Below, one piece after another: positions 46,180 to 62,492 of a stretch of 64,000 bases of DNA. A model generated the notes under the pieces. The model had not been told where the DNA came from and did not search any database. It was given only the letters and a program-made list of their open reading frames with translations. This stretch comes from a virus. The translations under genes and the position numbers were made by a program. Location: IMG/VR virus record IMGVR_UViG_3300010413_000017, positions 1-64,000 of that record, one strand, 5' to 3'. Position 1 is the first letter of the stretch. Each line of letters starts with the position of its first letter.

Positions 46180-46440
46180 TTAATATAATGAACGAGTGCC
46201 GCCAAGTTCCTTTCTCACTTCTTCGATGGCTTTTTCAATTTGGGTTTTAAGTTCTTCAACTTCTTGGCTGAGTTCTTTTGCGTATTCTTCCGCTTCCTCT
46301 TTGCTATCGCAATCATAGTTAGCGAGTTGTCTGTAGAGCTCATCTAAGCGTCCTTTTGCTTCTGCTTGAGCAAGCTTTTTTTGTTCAAGCTGTTCTTTTA
46401 GGTTGAGTAGTTTTGTGGCTAAGACTTTCGAGTGTGTCAC
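46180..46440 (-). CDS. Coiled-coil protein (possible middle piece of the split SbcC)
   Basis: Heptad-rich; directly follows the SbcD-like gene. Confidence 0.55.
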   Translation of the reverse strand: MTHSKVLATKLLNLKEQLEQKKLAQAEAKGRLDELYRQLANYDCDSKEEAEEYAKELSQEVEELKTQIEKAIEEVRKELGGTRSLY

Positions 46441-47320
46441 CCAAGCATCTCCTTACAAGTGTTTGAACTGAATCTGAGACAGAGTTATGTGCAAGAAAGA
46501 TTTCTAAGTTGCGCTCAAAACTTACACCTACTTCGTAACCTGTTTGTAGGTGTTCTATAAAACTGGCTATCCGAGCCTCACGTTCGGCTTTGCTAACAGA
46601 CTGTGTCATGTCGAAGACATCATCGTCGATGGGTAAGTAGATAAATTTGTTCTGTTCCACATCATAAACACAGGGCTTGTGGTCTACTTGGTCAATAGAC
46701 ATTCTCATCATGCTCCCTGGATTGATGTGGCGGCGTTTACGCGTTGTTTCGATAAAGGTTTGATGATTGTCCCCTGTTATAACTAAATCATACTGTCTGA
46801 GGCGTCTCAGCACCTGTCCGGCAATTGTAGCCTTTTGGCCAGGCCAAAGTTCTTCCCCTTTACGAATAACCAAGTGGTGCCAGATTAGCACCTTAGTAAA
46901 GTTTGAAATATCACCTTCAATCTCAGAGGAAGGGTTTTTACCAAATGGACAACCAAACAAGGCGTACTGTTCATAGAAGTAGGGCTCGCTAGGATGAATT
47001 AAAATGTTTACGAGTCCAGCTGCCTGTAGAATACCTAGGCCGCTATCGTCCAACCTGTTCAGTGAGTGGTAGGGCATATCGTGCTGGCCCGGTATGACAA
47101 TAGGAACAACATCGTAGTGAATGAGCGCGTCGATAACCCACCGAATAAGAGGAATGGGTGGTCTAGCCTTGTGGAAGAAGTCTCCTGCTACAACAAGAGG
47201 CGAGTTCTGTCTAGCTAATTCTAGGAGAGTAAAAAACTTCTTTTCTTGGGCTTGCCAGTAATCATCCTTTCGAGCTGTGGGTTTATCGTGTCGAAGGTGG
47301 ATATCAGCAACGGCAATCAC
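46385..47320 (-). CDS. SbcD/Mre11 metallophosphoesterase nuclease
   Basis: ADIH, AGDFF, PGQHD, GDNH and NPGS motifs. Confidence 0.9.
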   Translation of the reverse strand: MIAVADIHLRHDKPTARKDDYWQAQEKKFFTLLELARQNSPLVVAGDFFHKARPPIPLIRWVIDALIHYDVVPIVIPGQHDMPYHSLNRLDDSGLGILQAAGLVNILIHPSEPYFYEQYALFGCPFGKNPSSEIEGDISNFTKVLIWHHLVIRKGEELWPGQKATIAGQVLRRLRQYDLVITGDNHQTFIETTRKRRHINPGSMMRMSIDQVDHKPCVYDVEQNKFIYLPIDDDVFDMTQSVSKAEREARIASFIEHLQTGYEVGVSFERNLEIFLAHNSVSDSVQTLVRRCLGDTLESLSHKTTQPKRTA

Positions 47321-48261
47321 AGTTTCACCGCCTTCTGTTTATTCGCTCCACCACTAGCAAACAGGGTTGGGTTTATTGTATGCCCACACAAAGGACATAG
47401 ATTTGGGCACAACGACTTTAATCTGTTTTGGTATGTAACAAATTCCCCTTTTAGTCTCTCGAGTTCGGCATCTTGTTTTTGCATGTGTTGGAGTAGTGAA
47501 ACAAGGCGTTGATATTGTGCCTCTTTGTGTTGCAGTTGTTCAAGTTTAAGTTCTATGTCGGAGAGGCTAATGTCAGGCACACATATATTATCCAGTTTAT
47601 CCGTACAGATTTCAATCTCTTTTATGAGTTTAACTATTTCGCTAGCAGTTTTTTGGCTGTTGGTTTGTTTTGTATGAGCGTTAGATATAACTGTCAACTG
47701 CGTATCAATCCACCCAAAGTCTGGCGACTTGGCAATCTCCTCATTGCGTTGTTCAATTTCTTTTTGGACGTGAGTTAACTTAGTTTTTGTGTCAGTTTCA
47801 AGCTTCTGTATCTGGGAAAGAGATTCATCTATCTTATCTAGGCTGACTACCCTGTTCAATGTTCTTGCAACAAAACCCGGACTTTCATCAAGTAGAAACG
47901 GACTGTCTAGTTGATATTGAATGTTGCGCTCGTCTATCTGAGTAAGTTCAACTATTTCAGACGGAACTTCCTGTCCAAACCCAACAAGCTCCTGCTCGTT
48001 GATAACATAACAGTTTCGTGCCTCGTTTCTAACCCTTGCTAATGTTATGTTATCTAGCACAACTTGAACAGAAGCAGTCTTAGCCCAGTGAGAAATGAAC
48101 TCAGCCCCAGCAGGTCTGTTGTGGAATACCCAACGGAGGGCACGTACAACAGAACTCTTGCCTACATCGCTCGAACCCACAATCACATTGACTCCTGGAC
48201 AGAAGGTCAGCGTAGAGGCTTTGTGAGACTGAAAATTATTCAGCGTCAGGGAGTGAATCAT
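47317..48261 (-). CDS. SbcC/Rad50 N-terminal half
   Basis: NFQSH, Walker A GSSDVGKS, coiled coil, ends at Zn-hook CPLCG. Confidence 0.88.
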   Translation of the reverse strand: MIHSLTLNNFQSHKASTLTFCPGVNVIVGSSDVGKSSVVRALRWVFHNRPAGAEFISHWAKTASVQVVLDNITLARVRNEARNCYVINEQELVGFGQEVPSEIVELTQIDERNIQYQLDSPFLLDESPGFVARTLNRVVSLDKIDESLSQIQKLETDTKTKLTHVQKEIEQRNEEIAKSPDFGWIDTQLTVISNAHTKQTNSQKTASEIVKLIKEIEICTDKLDNICVPDISLSDIELKLEQLQHKEAQYQRLVSLLQHMQKQDAELERLKGEFVTYQNRLKSLCPNLCPLCGHTINPTLFASGGANKQKAVKL

Positions 48262-48469: not shown

Positions 48470-48481
48470 TCATATAAGGGG

Positions 48482-48552
48482 CAGGGGAATCTGGACTCGA
48501 ACCAGAAATGTGAGGTCCAAAACCTCACGTGTTACCTTTACACCATTCCCCT
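48482..48552 (-). tRNA. tRNA-Gln(UUG), CCA not encoded
   Basis: AGGGGAA/TTCCCCT acceptor, D arm GTGT/ACAC, TGAGG-TTTTGGA-CCTCA anticodon arm, TCTGG-TTCGAGT-CCAGA T arm. Confidence 0.88.
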
Positions 48553-48560
48553 CTTTTAGT

Positions 48561-48637
48561 TGGTACGGGCAGAGGGATTCGAACCCCCGACAACGTGGCC
48601 CCAAACCACGCACTCTACCAGACTGAGCTATGCCCGT
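48561..48637 (-). tRNA. tRNA-Pro(UGG) with CCA
   Basis: ACGGGCA/TGCCCGT acceptor, CGTGG-TTTGGGG-CCACG anticodon arm, TTCGAAT T loop, ACCA end. Confidence 0.92.
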
Positions 48638-48760: not shown

Positions 48761-49006
48761 TCAACCGTCCTTGGAGCGGAACGAGGGATACGAACCCTCA
48801 TCTTTAGACGGGAAGTCTAACGTTTTACTTAAACTAGTTCCGCTTGGTTGTTCAATCGCTCGTTCGATGGCACACCTAACAAGAGGGATAAGTATGTCTA
48901 GACAACGTGTGCAATAGAGGTCAGGTAAATCGTAGCCTTGTTCAGCTAATGCAACAACATCGTCAATTAAGTCCCCGCAACCTTGGCAAAAAACATTTAT
49001 GGTCAT
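48761..49006 (-). CDS. Small CxxC..CxxC protein whose 3' end overlaps tRNA-Gly
   Basis: ATGA coupling to the upstream gene; CQGC...CTRC. Confidence 0.45.
   Translation of the reverse strand: MTINVFCQGCGDLIDDVVALAEQGYDLPDLYCTRCLDILIPLVRCAIERAIEQPSGTSLSKTLDFPSKDEGSYPSFRSKDG
48772..48843 (-). tRNA. tRNA-Gly(UCC) with a shortened D loop
   Basis: GCGGAAC/GTTCCGC acceptor, TCCA end, TTAGA-CTTCCCG-TCTAA arm, GAGGG-TTCGTAT-CCCTC T arm; D loop AAGTA lacks GG. Confidence 0.75.
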
Positions 49007-50647: not shown

Positions 50648-51037
50648 TTAGTCCTCCTTGTTTTTACTGCCGTTGTTGCTTTCCCTTTTCTTACTTACTG
50701 CCATATTGTACTTAGTTGCCAGTTCATCGTAAGCTACTCCTGTATCATCAGACATCTCAGAAAGTTGCACCTCTTCCGAACTCCAAAGGCGTCCTGCGTT
50801 GTTCTCGTGTTTTGTTACAAGTGCGAATACTACAATCGCCGCTAGAAAAATTAAAAAAATCGTTTTTGCGCTGTCCGGACCGCTACCGGGAAGGTCTGAA
50901 TAGAGAGCAAAAAATGAAAACACAGACCCTAGTACAGCGAGTAGGACTACCCCAAACCAGAACTCAGGGACACAGTGTTCGTCCCAAGTGACTTTACGTG
51001 GCTTCCCAAACTCATCAAGTTTGCGTACTCTCTTCAT
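50648..51037 (-). CDS. Two-TM membrane protein
   Basis: Two hydrophobic helices; coupled to neighbours. Confidence 0.55.
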   Translation of the reverse strand: MKRVRKLDEFGKPRKVTWDEHCVPEFWFGVVLLAVLGSVFSFFALYSDLPGSGPDSAKTIFLIFLAAIVVFALVTKHENNAGRLWSSEEVQLSEMSDDTGVAYDELATKYNMAVSKKRESNNGSKNKED

Positions 51038-51282
51038 CAGTCTTCCTCTTTTTGTTTACTGCCCTGCGGATTTGTCATAGGCGTACCGTCAGGGAACAGT
51101 ACGAAATCTTCCTTTTGTTTAACCCAGTTGCACGGGCCATACTGACGTTCGAATTCGCGTATAAATTCGCGCCTGTCCTGTTCTTCAAGATGACGAAAGA
51201 ACGCGTCAGTCCACTTCTTCCAGAGCTTCTTAATTTTATCCACAGTTACTCCATCCACAAAAAGGATTAGGACAAGTTTCAC
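51037..51282 (-). CDS. Hypothetical protein
   Basis: ORF in operon order. Confidence 0.4.
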   Translation of the reverse strand: MKLVLILFVDGVTVDKIKKLWKKWTDAFFRHLEEQDRREFIREFERQYGPCNWVKQKEDFVLFPDGTPMTNPQGSKQKEED

Positions 51283-53509
51283 ATCCCTCTTTTGCTACCA
51301 AGATTTCTCCGCAATCTGGGCACATCTTAGCGTCCCCAGGTAGTACTCGGGTTGAGCGGTAGATTTCTAATTCATCCTCTGGAGCACTGGGGCTGGCGGC
51401 AGGAATCGAACCCGCGACCGTCTCATTACAAGTGAGGCGCTCTACCTGCTGAGCTACGCCAGCCCGTGCTTGTTGCTCTTGGGTTTGTTGGCTTTGTAAC
51501 TTTCTCTTGCGAATGACTTTTGCAATGCCGTCAGGGGGGGATAAGACTTGTTCTCCATTGTGGAACATTACACGCTCGCCGCCGATGCCCCGCAACTGCT
51601 TCTCGATGTCTTCCCACGACGCTCCATACTTAAGTGCAAGTGTCCCGAGGCGTCCGACAGCGTCGTTCATCGCCGCAATAGTTCTACCTGATTTAGAAAT
51701 CTGAGTCCACATTTCTTTAAACCCTGTATTAGAGTCTTCAAACAGATGCACCCAAAGAGTGCCGTCCCCAGTCTTAACTCTATCTCTGGACCCAGCTAGA
51801 AATTCAGGGGTTTCTAGAGTTACAGAAGACGTATATGACGCATGTTCTGCCTTTTTAGTATGGCGTAGGCTGGGTGGGAGAGATTTGATAATATCCCTGT
51901 ATGCTTTTGTATCTCGTTGGGCTTCCTCTTCTCGACTCCCCTGTCGGTAGAAAGTGATGCCCTTGCACCCAAGTTTATACGCGAGCCTGAAAGCTCTGTC
52001 CACTTCCTCGATAGTTACAGAACTGGGAGCGTTGATAGTCTTGCTTACAGCATTGTCTGTATATTTTTGGAAAGCGGCCTGCATCTTAACATGATGTTCG
52101 ATTGGGACGTCCTTAGATTCGATGAAATAGTCGGGACATTTTATCCCTTCATTGATGGCTTGCCAGTCCTCGTATAGAGGATGCATTACGACCAGCGTTT
52201 CATCTATTGCTTTTTTCTCGTAGACGAATGAGAATACTGGCTCAATCCCCGAGCTACACCCGGCTATTAAACTGAGTGTGCCTGTAGGAGCTATCGTTGT
52301 AACCGTCCCGTTTCTGCGGTCAATAAGGGGTGTATCCTTGCGCCCAGAAGGTAAGTCTGCCCAAGCTGGGTATCCTTTTTCCTTAGCTAACTCTGTAGAA
52401 CAGAGATGAGCTACGTCATTAACGAATTGCATCACCTGTTCAGCTAGGACTAGAGCCGTTTCCATGTCATAACGTATTCGCATCTTAATAAGCATGTCAG
52501 CCCAGCCCATAACACCTAGCCCTATTTTGCGGAACTTTGTTGTTTCTCGTTTTATTTCGATAATTGGGTAATTATTAACGTCAATTACGTTATCAAGAAA
52601 ACGGACGGCTGTTTGCACAACCTCCATGAGCCTGTCCCACTGGATTGCGGGGAATATTGTTCCGGTATCTTCATTTAGTAAAGGCTCAACAAAATTACTT
52701 AGATTGATGCTTCCTAAAACACAAGACTCATAAGGGGACAACGGTTGCTCCCCACAAGGATTTGTGGCTGTAATCTTTTGATACTTTCCGACAGGGTTAG
52801 TCTCGTTAACCTTGTCTATAAAGACAATGCCCGGTTCTCCGTTCTTCCATGCGCCGTCGATTATACTCGCCCAAATGTAATCTACGTGTGGATACCCTGT
52901 CAAGGCGACCTTATCCATGAAATCATCTGTTAAAGCAACCGAGATATTGAAATGTCTCAACTCTCCTTCTTTTTCTTTGCACTTAATAAACTCGAGAACA
53001 TCTGGATGGTCACAGCGTAGAATACCCATCTGCGCTCCTTTGCGAACTCCTCCCTGCTCAATTATTTCTCCTACAACAAAGTCAAAGACACGCATAAATC
53101 CAACAGGTCCAGAGGCTTTGCCTTTTGTTGTACTAATTAATGAACCGCGCGGTCGGAGATTCGAGAAATCGTAACCTGTGCCTCCACCGAAAGCCTGAAC
53201 TTCGACTGCGTCTGTGAGAGCTTTAAAAATAGACTGACGAGAATCTTCGATTGGGATAACAAAGCAGGCGGCTAAGTTACCGTGATTGGCTCCTGCGTTC
53301 CGCAGGGTGGGGGAGTTGGGAAGAAAATCCAAATTGGACATTACTGAGTAGAACTCTTGTTCCCAGTAGTCCTTGTCCTTTTCCACAGAGGCGATATGGC
53401 GTGCTACACGCCTGAACATCTCTTCCGGTGCTTCAATAACGTTGCCACGTGCATCCTGCTGTAGAATCCGCTTTTCTAAAACTCGAATCGCGTTAGCCGA
53501 CAGATTCAA
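51236..53509 (-). CDS. nrdJ: Class II (B12-dependent) ribonucleotide reductase
   Basis: FLPNSPTL, AACFV, GGGTG, GEPG, TNPCGEQPL..YESC.LGS, TIAPTGT, DNAVSKT and GCKGIT.YR motifs; TSCPD-like region; C-terminal CPDCG...EGC..C...CGWS.C; no beta-subunit gene nearby. Confidence 0.92.
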   Translation of the reverse strand: MNLSANAIRVLEKRILQQDARGNVIEAPEEMFRRVARHIASVEKDKDYWEQEFYSVMSNLDFLPNSPTLRNAGANHGNLAACFVIPIEDSRQSIFKALTDAVEVQAFGGGTGYDFSNLRPRGSLISTTKGKASGPVGFMRVFDFVVGEIIEQGGVRKGAQMGILRCDHPDVLEFIKCKEKEGELRHFNISVALTDDFMDKVALTGYPHVDYIWASIIDGAWKNGEPGIVFIDKVNETNPVGKYQKITATNPCGEQPLSPYESCVLGSINLSNFVEPLLNEDTGTIFPAIQWDRLMEVVQTAVRFLDNVIDVNNYPIIEIKRETTKFRKIGLGVMGWADMLIKMRIRYDMETALVLAEQVMQFVNDVAHLCSTELAKEKGYPAWADLPSGRKDTPLIDRRNGTVTTIAPTGTLSLIAGCSSGIEPVFSFVYEKKAIDETLVVMHPLYEDWQAINEGIKCPDYFIESKDVPIEHHVKMQAAFQKYTDNAVSKTINAPSSVTIEEVDRAFRLAYKLGCKGITFYRQGSREEEAQRDTKAYRDIIKSLPPSLRHTKKAEHASYTSSVTLETPEFLAGSRDRVKTGDGTLWVHLFEDSNTGFKEMWTQISKSGRTIAAMNDAVGRLGTLALKYGASWEDIEKQLRGIGGERVMFHNGEQVLSPPDGIAKVIRKRKLQSQQTQEQQARAGVAQQVERLTCNETVAGSIPAASPSAPEDELEIYRSTRVLPGDAKMCPDCGEILVAKEGCETCPNPFCGWSNCG
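51388..51463 (-). tRNA. tRNA-Thr(UGU) with CCA, embedded within nrdJ
   Basis: GCTGGCG TA GCTC AGCAGGTA GAGC G CCTCA CTTGTAA TGAGA CGGTC GCGGG TTCGATT CCTGC CGCCAGC C CCA (76 nt). Confidence 0.9.
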
Positions 53510-61463: not shown

Positions 61464-62492
61464 TTAAGCCACATCGTCAGGTGAAACAGACTCTCGTCCG
61501 GCCTCTACAGGAACCGGTGTAGCGTCATAAACCCAGCCACGTTCCTCTGGCATAATCGTTCTGTGCGGCCCGTCTAGAACTGCCTCTGCGTATAGAGGTG
61601 AAGTAGGTAATCCCAAAAGTGTTCTGCCTACATACCAATAGTCCGCAAGGAAGTGCTTCATAATGACACGCAGTGCGGCCATGTGCCTGTGATTAGGAAC
61701 GGTCTCTTTCCATGGTTTCTCGACAAGCCTGTGCCGACCGTTATGTAAGCCAAATGTCTTAACAAGTTTCTCAGAGTTATCCAACTTGGAGCGCGTTTTG
61801 TCGTACAGATAACCATACGCGCTACCTTTGTTCCTCTGTTTCATCTGTGAGTTAGCCATAGTGAAGAGAGCAGTCCGAAGAGACCTGTTACCACCACTAG
61901 GTTCCCCCGGAGTATAGCGGGCGTGGGCGGGAGTGTGCAGTCCAGTGTACCTCCACAGACTGGAGGCGTGCTTCGCCTTTGCCAGATCTATGTAGACAAG
62001 GCAGTAAGCTATGGTCACAAAGCCAACAGAATGTACTCCCAATGCGGCTTGCACCAACGGGTTCGTTTGGGCAATCTCGTTAACCGTTTTTTTGAGTGCG
62101 TGCGTACGCTTGCTCAACAGAGACGTTAATTGGTCGAGTTGTATAGACAGAAACTCGGCTGTTTCTGGGTTAAGAGTATCTGTACGCCTTCGATACGCGC
62201 GTAACTGATTGCCGATTTTGGTGTGGAGTTTCAAGACTTGGTTCCTGTCATCCACTTGGGCTTTGAGACGTTCAAACAGTTCAGGACGCTCCCGAAAGAT
62301 GCCATGGTGCCGCATGTGAGTGATGGGGTCTACCACGCATGTGTTATCGGGAGTATACCTTCCACCTTTGCTTTTGGGTTTCAGCCTGTGTGTGTCGAAG
62401 CTTTCAGTAGGTTCACCTAGTGGTTGTCCAGTAAATGCGTCAACTCCAAGTTGTTTCTCCTTAGTCGTACGTTTCAGTTCTTCTTTTGCCAC
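61464..62492 (-). CDS. tasH: TasH-like RNA-guided nuclease (HNH + coiled coil + Nop/IS110-like domain)
   Basis: N-terminal HNH (DTHRLKPKSKGG.YTPDN...THMRHH), coiled coil, GVHSVG...IDL.KA...SSLWRYTGL, GGN..LRT.L and HRH.AALR...K.FL.D motifs; no DEDD RuvC domain; flanked by dual-repeat arrays. Confidence 0.82.
   Translation of the reverse strand: MAKEELKRTTKEKQLGVDAFTGQPLGEPTESFDTHRLKPKSKGGRYTPDNTCVVDPITHMRHHGIFRERPELFERLKAQVDDRNQVLKLHTKIGNQLRAYRRRTDTLNPETAEFLSIQLDQLTSLLSKRTHALKKTVNEIAQTNPLVQAALGVHSVGFVTIAYCLVYIDLAKAKHASSLWRYTGLHTPAHARYTPGEPSGGNRSLRTALFTMANSQMKQRNKGSAYGYLYDKTRSKLDNSEKLVKTFGLHNGRHRLVEKPWKETVPNHRHMAALRVIMKHFLADYWYVGRTLLGLPTSPLYAEAVLDGPHRTIMPEERGWVYDATPVPVEAGRESVSPDDVA

Follow-up and report, generated by a model that had tools for sequence, protein, structure and literature searches.

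Can a single stretch of DNA serve as a complete tRNA gene and, at the same time, as codons in the middle of an essential enzyme? The question is raised by 64,000 nt of viral DNA (positions 1 to 64,000 of IMG/VR record IMGVR_UViG_3300010413_000017, hereafter the window), in which a tRNA-Thr(UGU) gene lies at 51388..51463 on the minus strand, wholly inside nrdJ, a gene for a class II (B12-type) ribonucleotide reductase (RNR) of 757 aa that starts with TTG and occupies 51236..53509 on the same strand according to the list of open reading frames (ORFs), Pfam, and alignments with relatives. We consider it probable that this is a working tRNA, co-transcribed with nrdJ from within one of its linkers, and that the same nucleotides are also translated as a spacer of ~25 residues leading to the essential cysteine-rich tail of the enzyme.

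The tRNA was called by ARAGORN and matches the Rfam family RF00005 over the full model (1-71) with 66.4 bits (gathering score 29, E 3.4e-13), the best score among the four tRNAs of the window, the free-standing ones reaching 57-62 bits. Its 76 nt end in an encoded CCA preceded by the discriminator C73, and its stem pairs are standard at 20 of the 21 positions, the exception being C27-A43 at the top of the anticodon stem. The conserved core is present (U8, A14, G18G19, U33, a purine at 37, G53-T54-T55-C56-R57-A58, and C61). The identity set of E. coli threonyl-tRNA synthetase (ThrRS) consists of G1-C72, C2-G71, G35, and U36, and all of these are found here (GCUGGCG...CGCCAGC, anticodon UGU). 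By these features the nested element is a genuine elongator tRNA-Thr gene. An earlier note on this DNA had described just such a tRNA with one C-A mismatch in the anticodon stem, complete, on the same strand and in frame within an RNR gene, between a TSCPD-like region and a Cys-rich tail, and this description is borne out in every part by ARAGORN, the Rfam alignment, the 757-aa frame, and the domain borders. Folded on their own, the 76 nt take a minimum free energy structure other than a cloverleaf (z -1.9), as unmodified tRNA sequences commonly do, and this was given no weight. The insert contains no intron family in Rfam, nor does the window protein contain an intein domain in Pfam. A plus-strand Rfam match to 'Plastid-ycf2' (36.6 bits against a threshold of 65.7) is the antisense of the tRNA and was set aside as an artefact. 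As to its likely use, ACA is the commonest threonine codon of the phage (42%), and neither the window record nor that of the closest relative, labeled L086 below, holds any other tRNA-Thr copy. All four tRNAs of the window have U34 anticodons matched to A-ending codons, the usual pattern of phage tRNA supplements.

Within nrdJ the tRNA corresponds to codons 683-707 and the first base of codon 708, and the frame is translated across the nested region as RAGVAQQVERLTCNETVAGSIPAASPS. The protein matches PF00317 (9e-24), PF02867 (2.6e-109), and TSCPD (PF12637), and contains the active-site NPCGE motif, of which N250, P251, C252, and E254 are invariant in the alignment with relatives; from its family membership, it would be expected to depend on adenosylcobalamin. 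By Pfam and the alignments, it is divided into a catalytic core made of an all-alpha domain and a barrel and ending at YRQGSREEEAQ (residues 1-531; 51917..53509), a variable linker 1 (residues 532-567; 51809..51916), a TSCPD-like domain that is also seen in the AlphaFold model (residues 568-669; 51503..51808), a linker 2 that passes from a Gln-rich stretch through the tRNA-encoded residues to EIYRSTRVLPG (residues 670-729; 51323..51502), and a cysteine-rich zinc tail (residues 730-757; 51239..51322), all on the minus strand. The tail reads CPDCG...CGWSNCG, and its cysteines at 730, 733, 743, 746, 751, and 756 are invariant in an alignment of 46 sequences. That these C-terminal cysteines are needed for turnover, in line with the earlier note, which has them re-reduce the active site, agrees with experiments on the bacterial enzyme NrdJd, in which tail-dependent turnover requires all six of them, the tail-less enzyme is active only with dithiothreitol (DTT), and an intact tail is able to reduce the neighboring subunit (Loderer 2017, PMC5704485).

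How does such a protein accommodate a tRNA? In an AlphaFold model built with the 46-sequence alignment, the predicted local distance difference test (pLDDT) score exceeds 90 in the TSCPD-like domain and lies at 85-94 in the zinc ribbon, the Cys tail being modeled confidently as a small beta ribbon, and it drops from 79 to 49 over linker 2 and the tRNA-encoded residues. The model thus fits a role of these residues as a flexible spacer between two confidently predicted domains. Linker 2 varies from 28 to 60 aa among relatives, and EIYRSTRVLPG, the window segment that follows the tRNA, is homologous to the linker of the tRNA-less relative P0010, so the tRNA would have been inserted into a pre-existing linker. 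Deletion of the 76 nt would shift the nrdJ frame into a nearby stop. A given sense frame is free of stops in ~40% of tRNA cases, and exactly one open frame, the same one that the window uses, is found in 39 of the 49 distinct cellular tRNA-Thr(UGU) sequences among the matches listed (at least 76 genes). An open frame across the tRNA is accordingly unremarkable by itself, and the telling point in the sequences is its continuation, in every case, into the conserved Cys tail.

The earlier note had named misassembly among the findings that would overturn its reading, and this was rejected, since contigs from other studies cross the junctions exactly. The support was drawn from Logan contigs of other studies, and parts that these do not cover were not counted as evidence. 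The RNA-library contig X17 (from P2, a sediment study that includes DNA as well as RNA runs) matches 51326-51586 with 0 differences and includes the whole tRNA with 62 and 123 nt of flank, and contig X5 from a different study (P4) matches 51407-51737, again with 0 differences. Contig X3 (study P3) is likewise free of differences over 51032-51417 and includes 30 nt of the tRNA, missing the bridging rule by one. Depth rises sharply at 51417-51463, where tRNA-Thr of other organisms accumulate, which is why contigs break inside the tRNA. A skip joint in contig X2 (51260 to 51735, side 23, 90% likeness) is found in one contig with a short anchor and was taken to be another organism or a repeat.

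What has been conserved in this region can be seen by comparison with L086, whose nrdJ comes from a 140-kb, 92%-complete phage record and carries a tRNA-Thr(UGU) (59.1 bits) at the same site. The protein divergence between the two is about 36%, and the nested tRNAs are 80% identical, compared with 62-64% for the nrdJ codons and 68-73% for the free-standing Gln, Pro, and Gly tRNAs of the same two phages. The two agree completely in acceptor stem, D stem, T loop, C73, and CCA. In the anticodon stem, on the other hand, all five pairs differ, and still four to five of them pair in each copy, three of the changes being fully compensatory, which is the kind of change that the earlier note had proposed to look for in relatives. 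Over both copies 95% of cells are paired, a share that drops to 38-54% if the 3′ partners are shifted along to other registers. The two phages have the same first 14 nt, which are identical in every base and yet are read as AGVAQ in the window and as (G)WRSS in L086, because the copies differ by a 1-nt indel in the D-loop, and the frames re-join before the anticodon; it is therefore the nucleotides that are conserved and not the peptide. Judged from these two copies, selection acts on the RNA rather than on the peptide. Both carry C73, in contrast to the U73 of all 49 distinct cellular tRNA-Thr(UGU) among the matches listed, and the best full-length cellular identity among those matches is 89%, which together point to one old insertion inherited by both phages and not to a recent capture from a host. 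An assignment of the phage host from the tRNA itself was attempted and abandoned, the 5′ half being common to many phyla among the matches listed, including Gammaproteobacteria, Ignavibacteria, Omnitrophota, and Hydrogenedentota.

The arrangement recurs in a small clade. A search with the C-terminal region gave the protein relatives P0001-P0003, and scans of viral and metagenome contigs with a clade alignment gave the loci L005, L086, L089, and L090 (L086 is the same as L088, L090 the same as P0003, and L089 approximately P0002). An exhaustive profile search found the tight NrdJ clade to have only seven representatives at 50% identity. In the tree, an eight-member clade stands on a long branch (support 100/100) with the window and L086 as sisters (98/99), the rest of the clade being unresolved. 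In L086, linker 2 is made up almost wholly of the tRNA (...KVIRKRKL[G-tRNA]-M-CPDCG). L005 has a different tRNA at a different place, a tRNA-Asp(GUC) of 68.1 bits that lies in frame inside linker 1. Two further cases come from back-translation of linker-2 peptides, which are compatible with a cloverleaf of anticodon UUG or UCG (Gln/Arg) in P0001 and of anticodon UGU or UGC in P0008, where the acceptor stem fits Thr and not Ala; both reach the maximum score of the test (21/21 pairs, 5/5 conserved positions), which is supportive of nested tRNAs there and not proof. On these assignments at least three insertions would be needed, of Thr and of Gln/Arg into linker 2 and of Asp into linker 1. The clade members L089, L090, and L214 are without a nested tRNA.

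Beyond these cases the searches returned little. None of 80 more distant viral NrdJ loci contains a nested tRNA, an exact-pattern scan of viral contigs for the nested tRNA-Thr matched the L086 contig only, and a scan for a T-arm 10-40 nt upstream of the CPDC motif again gave L086 as its sole nested NrdJ case; among the other five matches of that scan, three were not called as tRNA and none matched NrdJ. Scanning viral contigs with the single protein P0001 gave no match, and scanning with P0008 gave nothing beyond L214, which has no tRNA, and some distant loci. Linkers might have been built from dead tRNAs, an idea that was rejected as tRNA-Thr and all-tRNA profiles run with nhmmer detected no remnant at E<=100 in the tRNA-less linkers (linker 1 of the window and of L086, linker 2 of L005, and those of L089 and L090) and Rfam at E<=1 found no tRNA in L089 or L090.

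Several observations on relatives may be placed beside these. In several distant phages, nrdJ is immediately preceded on its own strand by an array of as many as six tRNA genes (L016:295-1475, L019:115-1059, L031:1175-1249, and L050/L051:74-147), and tRNA genes and nrdJ thus appear to be frequent neighbors even where they are not nested. Inteins with LAGLIDADG/Hint Pfam matches, one or more to a gene, occur in nrdJ at L089:1112-4621 and L090:1454-4654, neither of which has a nested tRNA, and in P0008, to which a nested tRNA is ascribed by back-translation, and their sites differ, L090 having its intein behind NPC and L089 behind AVSK. L090 alone has an extra Cys-rich insert, GGNCPKCGHKNCG, inside its TSCPD-like domain (P0003 residues about 950-962). 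From such sequences nrdJ appears to be a gene that collects in-frame inserts. In an unrelated 117-kb viral contig (L220:544-648, minus strand), a tRNA-Lys is closely followed by an open frame starting CPDCGSSETRYKEW; here the tRNA abuts a small ORF of zinc-ribbon type and no NrdJ is nearby.

How would a tRNA be obtained from such a position? Consensus matches for an internal promoter or terminator are no more frequent near the nested tRNA than in shuffled sequence, and it is thus most likely transcribed within the nrdJ message. The tRNA would then most likely be made from the nrdJ transcript by tRNA-processing enzymes of the host, with RNase P cutting the 5′ end and endo- and exonucleases finishing the 3′ end. 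A transcript so processed could no longer yield full-length NrdJ, so that each transcript would give either the tRNA or the complete enzyme as a logical consequence of the cut in the message. A translating ribosome would conversely unfold the cloverleaf, and ribosome transit and tRNA folding may compete on each transcript. As for its origin, the tRNA may have landed at one of the rare harmless in-frame spots of a densely packed, co-transcribed module and stayed there because both products were useful; that an essential gene shelters it is a possible evolutionary gloss among others.

Several points weigh against a working tRNA. The covariation was counted from two orthologous DNA copies only, those of the window and L086, and the stems of each contain a single mismatch (C27-A43 for the window, C50-A64 for L086) that may indicate mild decay. 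By comparison with the cellular sequences examined, C73 is unusual for a tRNA-Thr. P0001 and P0008, two of the five nested cases, were deduced from peptides and not from DNA, and the maximum of the back-translation test was also reached in 2 unrelated windows across ~100,000 residues. With translation coupled, the cloverleaf should be unfolded for much of the time, and the yield of tRNA could be low. The sequences available are contigs, in which RNA ends cannot show, so that excision, modification, and charging of the tRNA are presumed, and X17, the sole RNA-library contig over the tRNA, has the unprocessed form, possibly represents DNA carry-over, and is no proof of transcription.

The alternative that survives best goes further than a working tRNA and makes the competition itself the selected feature, a regulatory switch in which the transcript gives either full NrdJ or a tRNA plus a non-stop message without the tail, tying the supply of deoxynucleoside triphosphates (dNTPs) to the translational state. 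It can draw on the persistence of the arrangement in the window and L086 across their divergence, on the tail downstream being essential for turnover (Loderer 2017, PMC5704485), and on the same logic having been proposed for selC in selB (Mukai 2021, PMC8124441). However, three isoacceptors in two linkers speak against a specific coupling of tRNA and RNR, close members of the clade (L089, L090, L214) do without the tRNA, the cut in L005 would also remove the TSCPD domain and thus have a different outcome, and the measurements made here do not bear on regulation. We regard the switch as unlikely. Of the dual coding put forward in the earlier note, the part that stands is an RNA under selection in a frame that remains open to the tail, and a selected regulatory switch is plausible only and not claimed. 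With different tRNAs present in both linkers, a landing site that is tolerant and co-transcribed seems a better reading than a link between RNR and Thr in particular. A wider version, in which both NrdJ linkers are recurrent landing sites in one clade of uncultured tailed phages, the tRNAs are cut from the mRNA, and the amount of full-length NrdJ is set by the ribosome against RNase P, seems to us about as doubtful, taken as a whole, as the switch.

Somewhat less probable still is that the tRNA is a relic, inserted once, no longer used as a tRNA, and tolerated as codons of a linker. The mismatch in each copy and the odd discriminator C73 would suit it, as would the readiness of the linkers to accept almost any sequence and length (28-60 aa for linker 2). 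A relic does not explain, however, why the nucleotides are more conserved than the flanking coding DNA and the free-standing tRNAs, why changes in the stem are compensatory, or why the same nucleotides are kept while being read in two frames; in a neutral linker the tRNA would have decayed, and the linkers that lack a tRNA hold no trace of one.

We think it very improbable that the gene is functionally split, with cutting at the tRNA parting the NrdJ body from a tail peptide that has its own start at the Met just before CPDCG. The window has an ATG directly before CPDCG with GGGGA 7 nt upstream, and L086 has an ATG at the same place, the A of which is A76 of the tRNA. There is no Met at this place in P0001, though, and no Shine-Dalgarno-like sequence in L086, a frame that is open across the tRNA in every case would be needless if the parts were made separately, and in the bacterial enzyme a separately expressed cysteine-rich domain (CRD) does not rescue the enzyme that lacks it (Loderer 2017, PMC5704485). 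An origin as an attP-type copy of a host tRNA, serving integration, or as the footprint of a mobile element is hardly credible for the tRNA. Phages often integrate into tRNA genes, inteins occupy the same gene in relatives, and a transposase-like gene is found at 61464-62492, but the tyrosine integrase and serine recombinase families (PF00589 and PF00239) are absent from the window record (79% complete), the L005 record, and the 140-kb relative, which is 92% complete. Moreover, the tRNA has its full length and is not a 3′ part, its best cellular identity is 89% among the matches listed with a phage-specific C73, and the insert has neither intron (Rfam) nor intein (Pfam). A working tRNA nested in nrdJ thus stays the most probable account of the locus.

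The surroundings of nrdJ are those of a replication module. The window record is a viral genome of 73.9 kb (completeness estimate 79%, GC 45.5% for the phage) which, by its genes, belongs to a tailed phage: a head protein, tape measure, tail fibre J, and minor tail protein are encoded on the plus strand, and on the minus strand there is a replication and nucleotide-metabolism module with DNA polymerase, UvsX-like recombinase, NrdJ, RusA-like resolvase, and SbcC-like nuclease. The four tRNAs called by ARAGORN are all on the minus strand. The three free-standing ones, confirmed by Rfam, are tRNA-Gln(UUG) at 48480-48552, tRNA-Pro(UGG) at 48561-48637, and tRNA-Gly(UCC) at 48772-48843; they lie at 48.5-48.8 kb on the nrdJ strand, ~2.5 kb downstream of the nested tRNA-Thr. 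The 140-kb relative G002, which is the record of L086, has the same Gln, Pro, and Gly isoacceptors clustered downstream of nrdJ. In that record there is also a tRNA with anticodon CUA, labeled 'Pyl' by ARAGORN and adjoining Gly(GCC) (L212:1940-2015, minus strand; G002:C1 about 77440-77515), which by its anticodon is of amber-suppressor type, and TAG read-through or recoding could occur in this relative. An 81-aa ORF without a family match (51037-51282, minus strand) starts 47 nt before the stop codon of nrdJ in a different frame. At 46385-48261 (minus strand), between nrdJ and the rest of the module, an SbcC-like exonuclease ORF (phrog_16465) has a stop codon that overlaps an upstream-encoded 311-aa ORF with metallophosphoesterase-like motifs, and the two probably form an SbcCD-type pair. 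The transposase-like gene at 61464-62492 (minus strand) is a 342-aa ORF with a PHROG match (phrog_4285, 1e-19), located within the replication module, where it adjoins the gene for DNA polymerase.

The closest known precedent, and the only described one that was found, is selC, the gene of tRNA-Sec, which in Alphaproteobacteria was seen by bioinformatics to be nested in the selB ORF; according to that paper, nesting of a tRNA gene in a bacterial ORF had not been reported before (Mukai 2021, Int J Mol Sci 22:4605, PMC8124441). In both systems a whole tRNA lies on the sense strand of an ORF and is translated in frame, the peptide starting and ending as dictated by the first bases of the tRNA and by CCA, the nesting is conserved among relatives without being universal, and the hypothesis of either tRNA or full protein arises from bioinformatics alone. 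The two differ in that selC forms a C-terminal extension past all domains, whereas the nrdJ tRNA is internal with the essential Cys tail (730-757) downstream of it. SelB and tRNA-Sec are, moreover, functional partners, while nrdJ houses tRNAs for Thr, Asp, and, by back-translation, Gln/Arg, and we know of no link of tRNA-Thr, tRNA-Asp, or tRNA-Gln to RNR. These are ordinary elongator tRNAs of at least three kinds at two sites, in phages rather than bacteria. A literature search found no phage precedent for a nested tRNA, though this is not proof of absence.

Other known arrangements share single aspects with this one. As in phage tRNA clusters, the anticodons carry U34 for preferred A-ending codons, and the gene is on the same strand and in the same module as the other tRNAs; unlike the members of such clusters, which stand between genes, the nested tRNA occupies codons and has to be kept in frame and free of stops. 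As with RNR inteins, which P0002, P0003, and P0008 carry in nrdJ, the insertion is in frame in a phage RNR gene; unlike them, the tRNA insert shows no signature of an intein or intron, remains part of the protein, and would encode a stable RNA with a function of its own. The linkers of characterised NrdJd enzymes are, to our knowledge, not described as containing a tRNA. In having a six-cysteine zinc tail at the extreme C-terminus, joined to the core by variable linkers, the window protein resembles these enzymes (Loderer 2017, PMC5704485).

Gene finders and annotation pipelines assume that tRNA genes and coding sequences share no bases on one strand, and overlaps of this kind are missed or flagged as errors. 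With ordinary elongators of several kinds, the nested-tRNA phenomenon becomes broader than selC in selB, and nrdJ offers a tractable test system in which tRNA, full-length protein, and truncated protein can be set against each other, and also an example of the tolerance of RNR linkers to inserts that is useful for engineering. Should the tRNA be matured from the nrdJ message, one stretch of DNA inside an essential enzyme would be held under two constraints, cloverleaf and ORF, and a single transcript would by its nature have to trade one of its two products for the other, and if the reading with recurrent landing sites and RNase P were true, it would amount to a phage-encoded coupling of translation capacity and dNTP synthesis.

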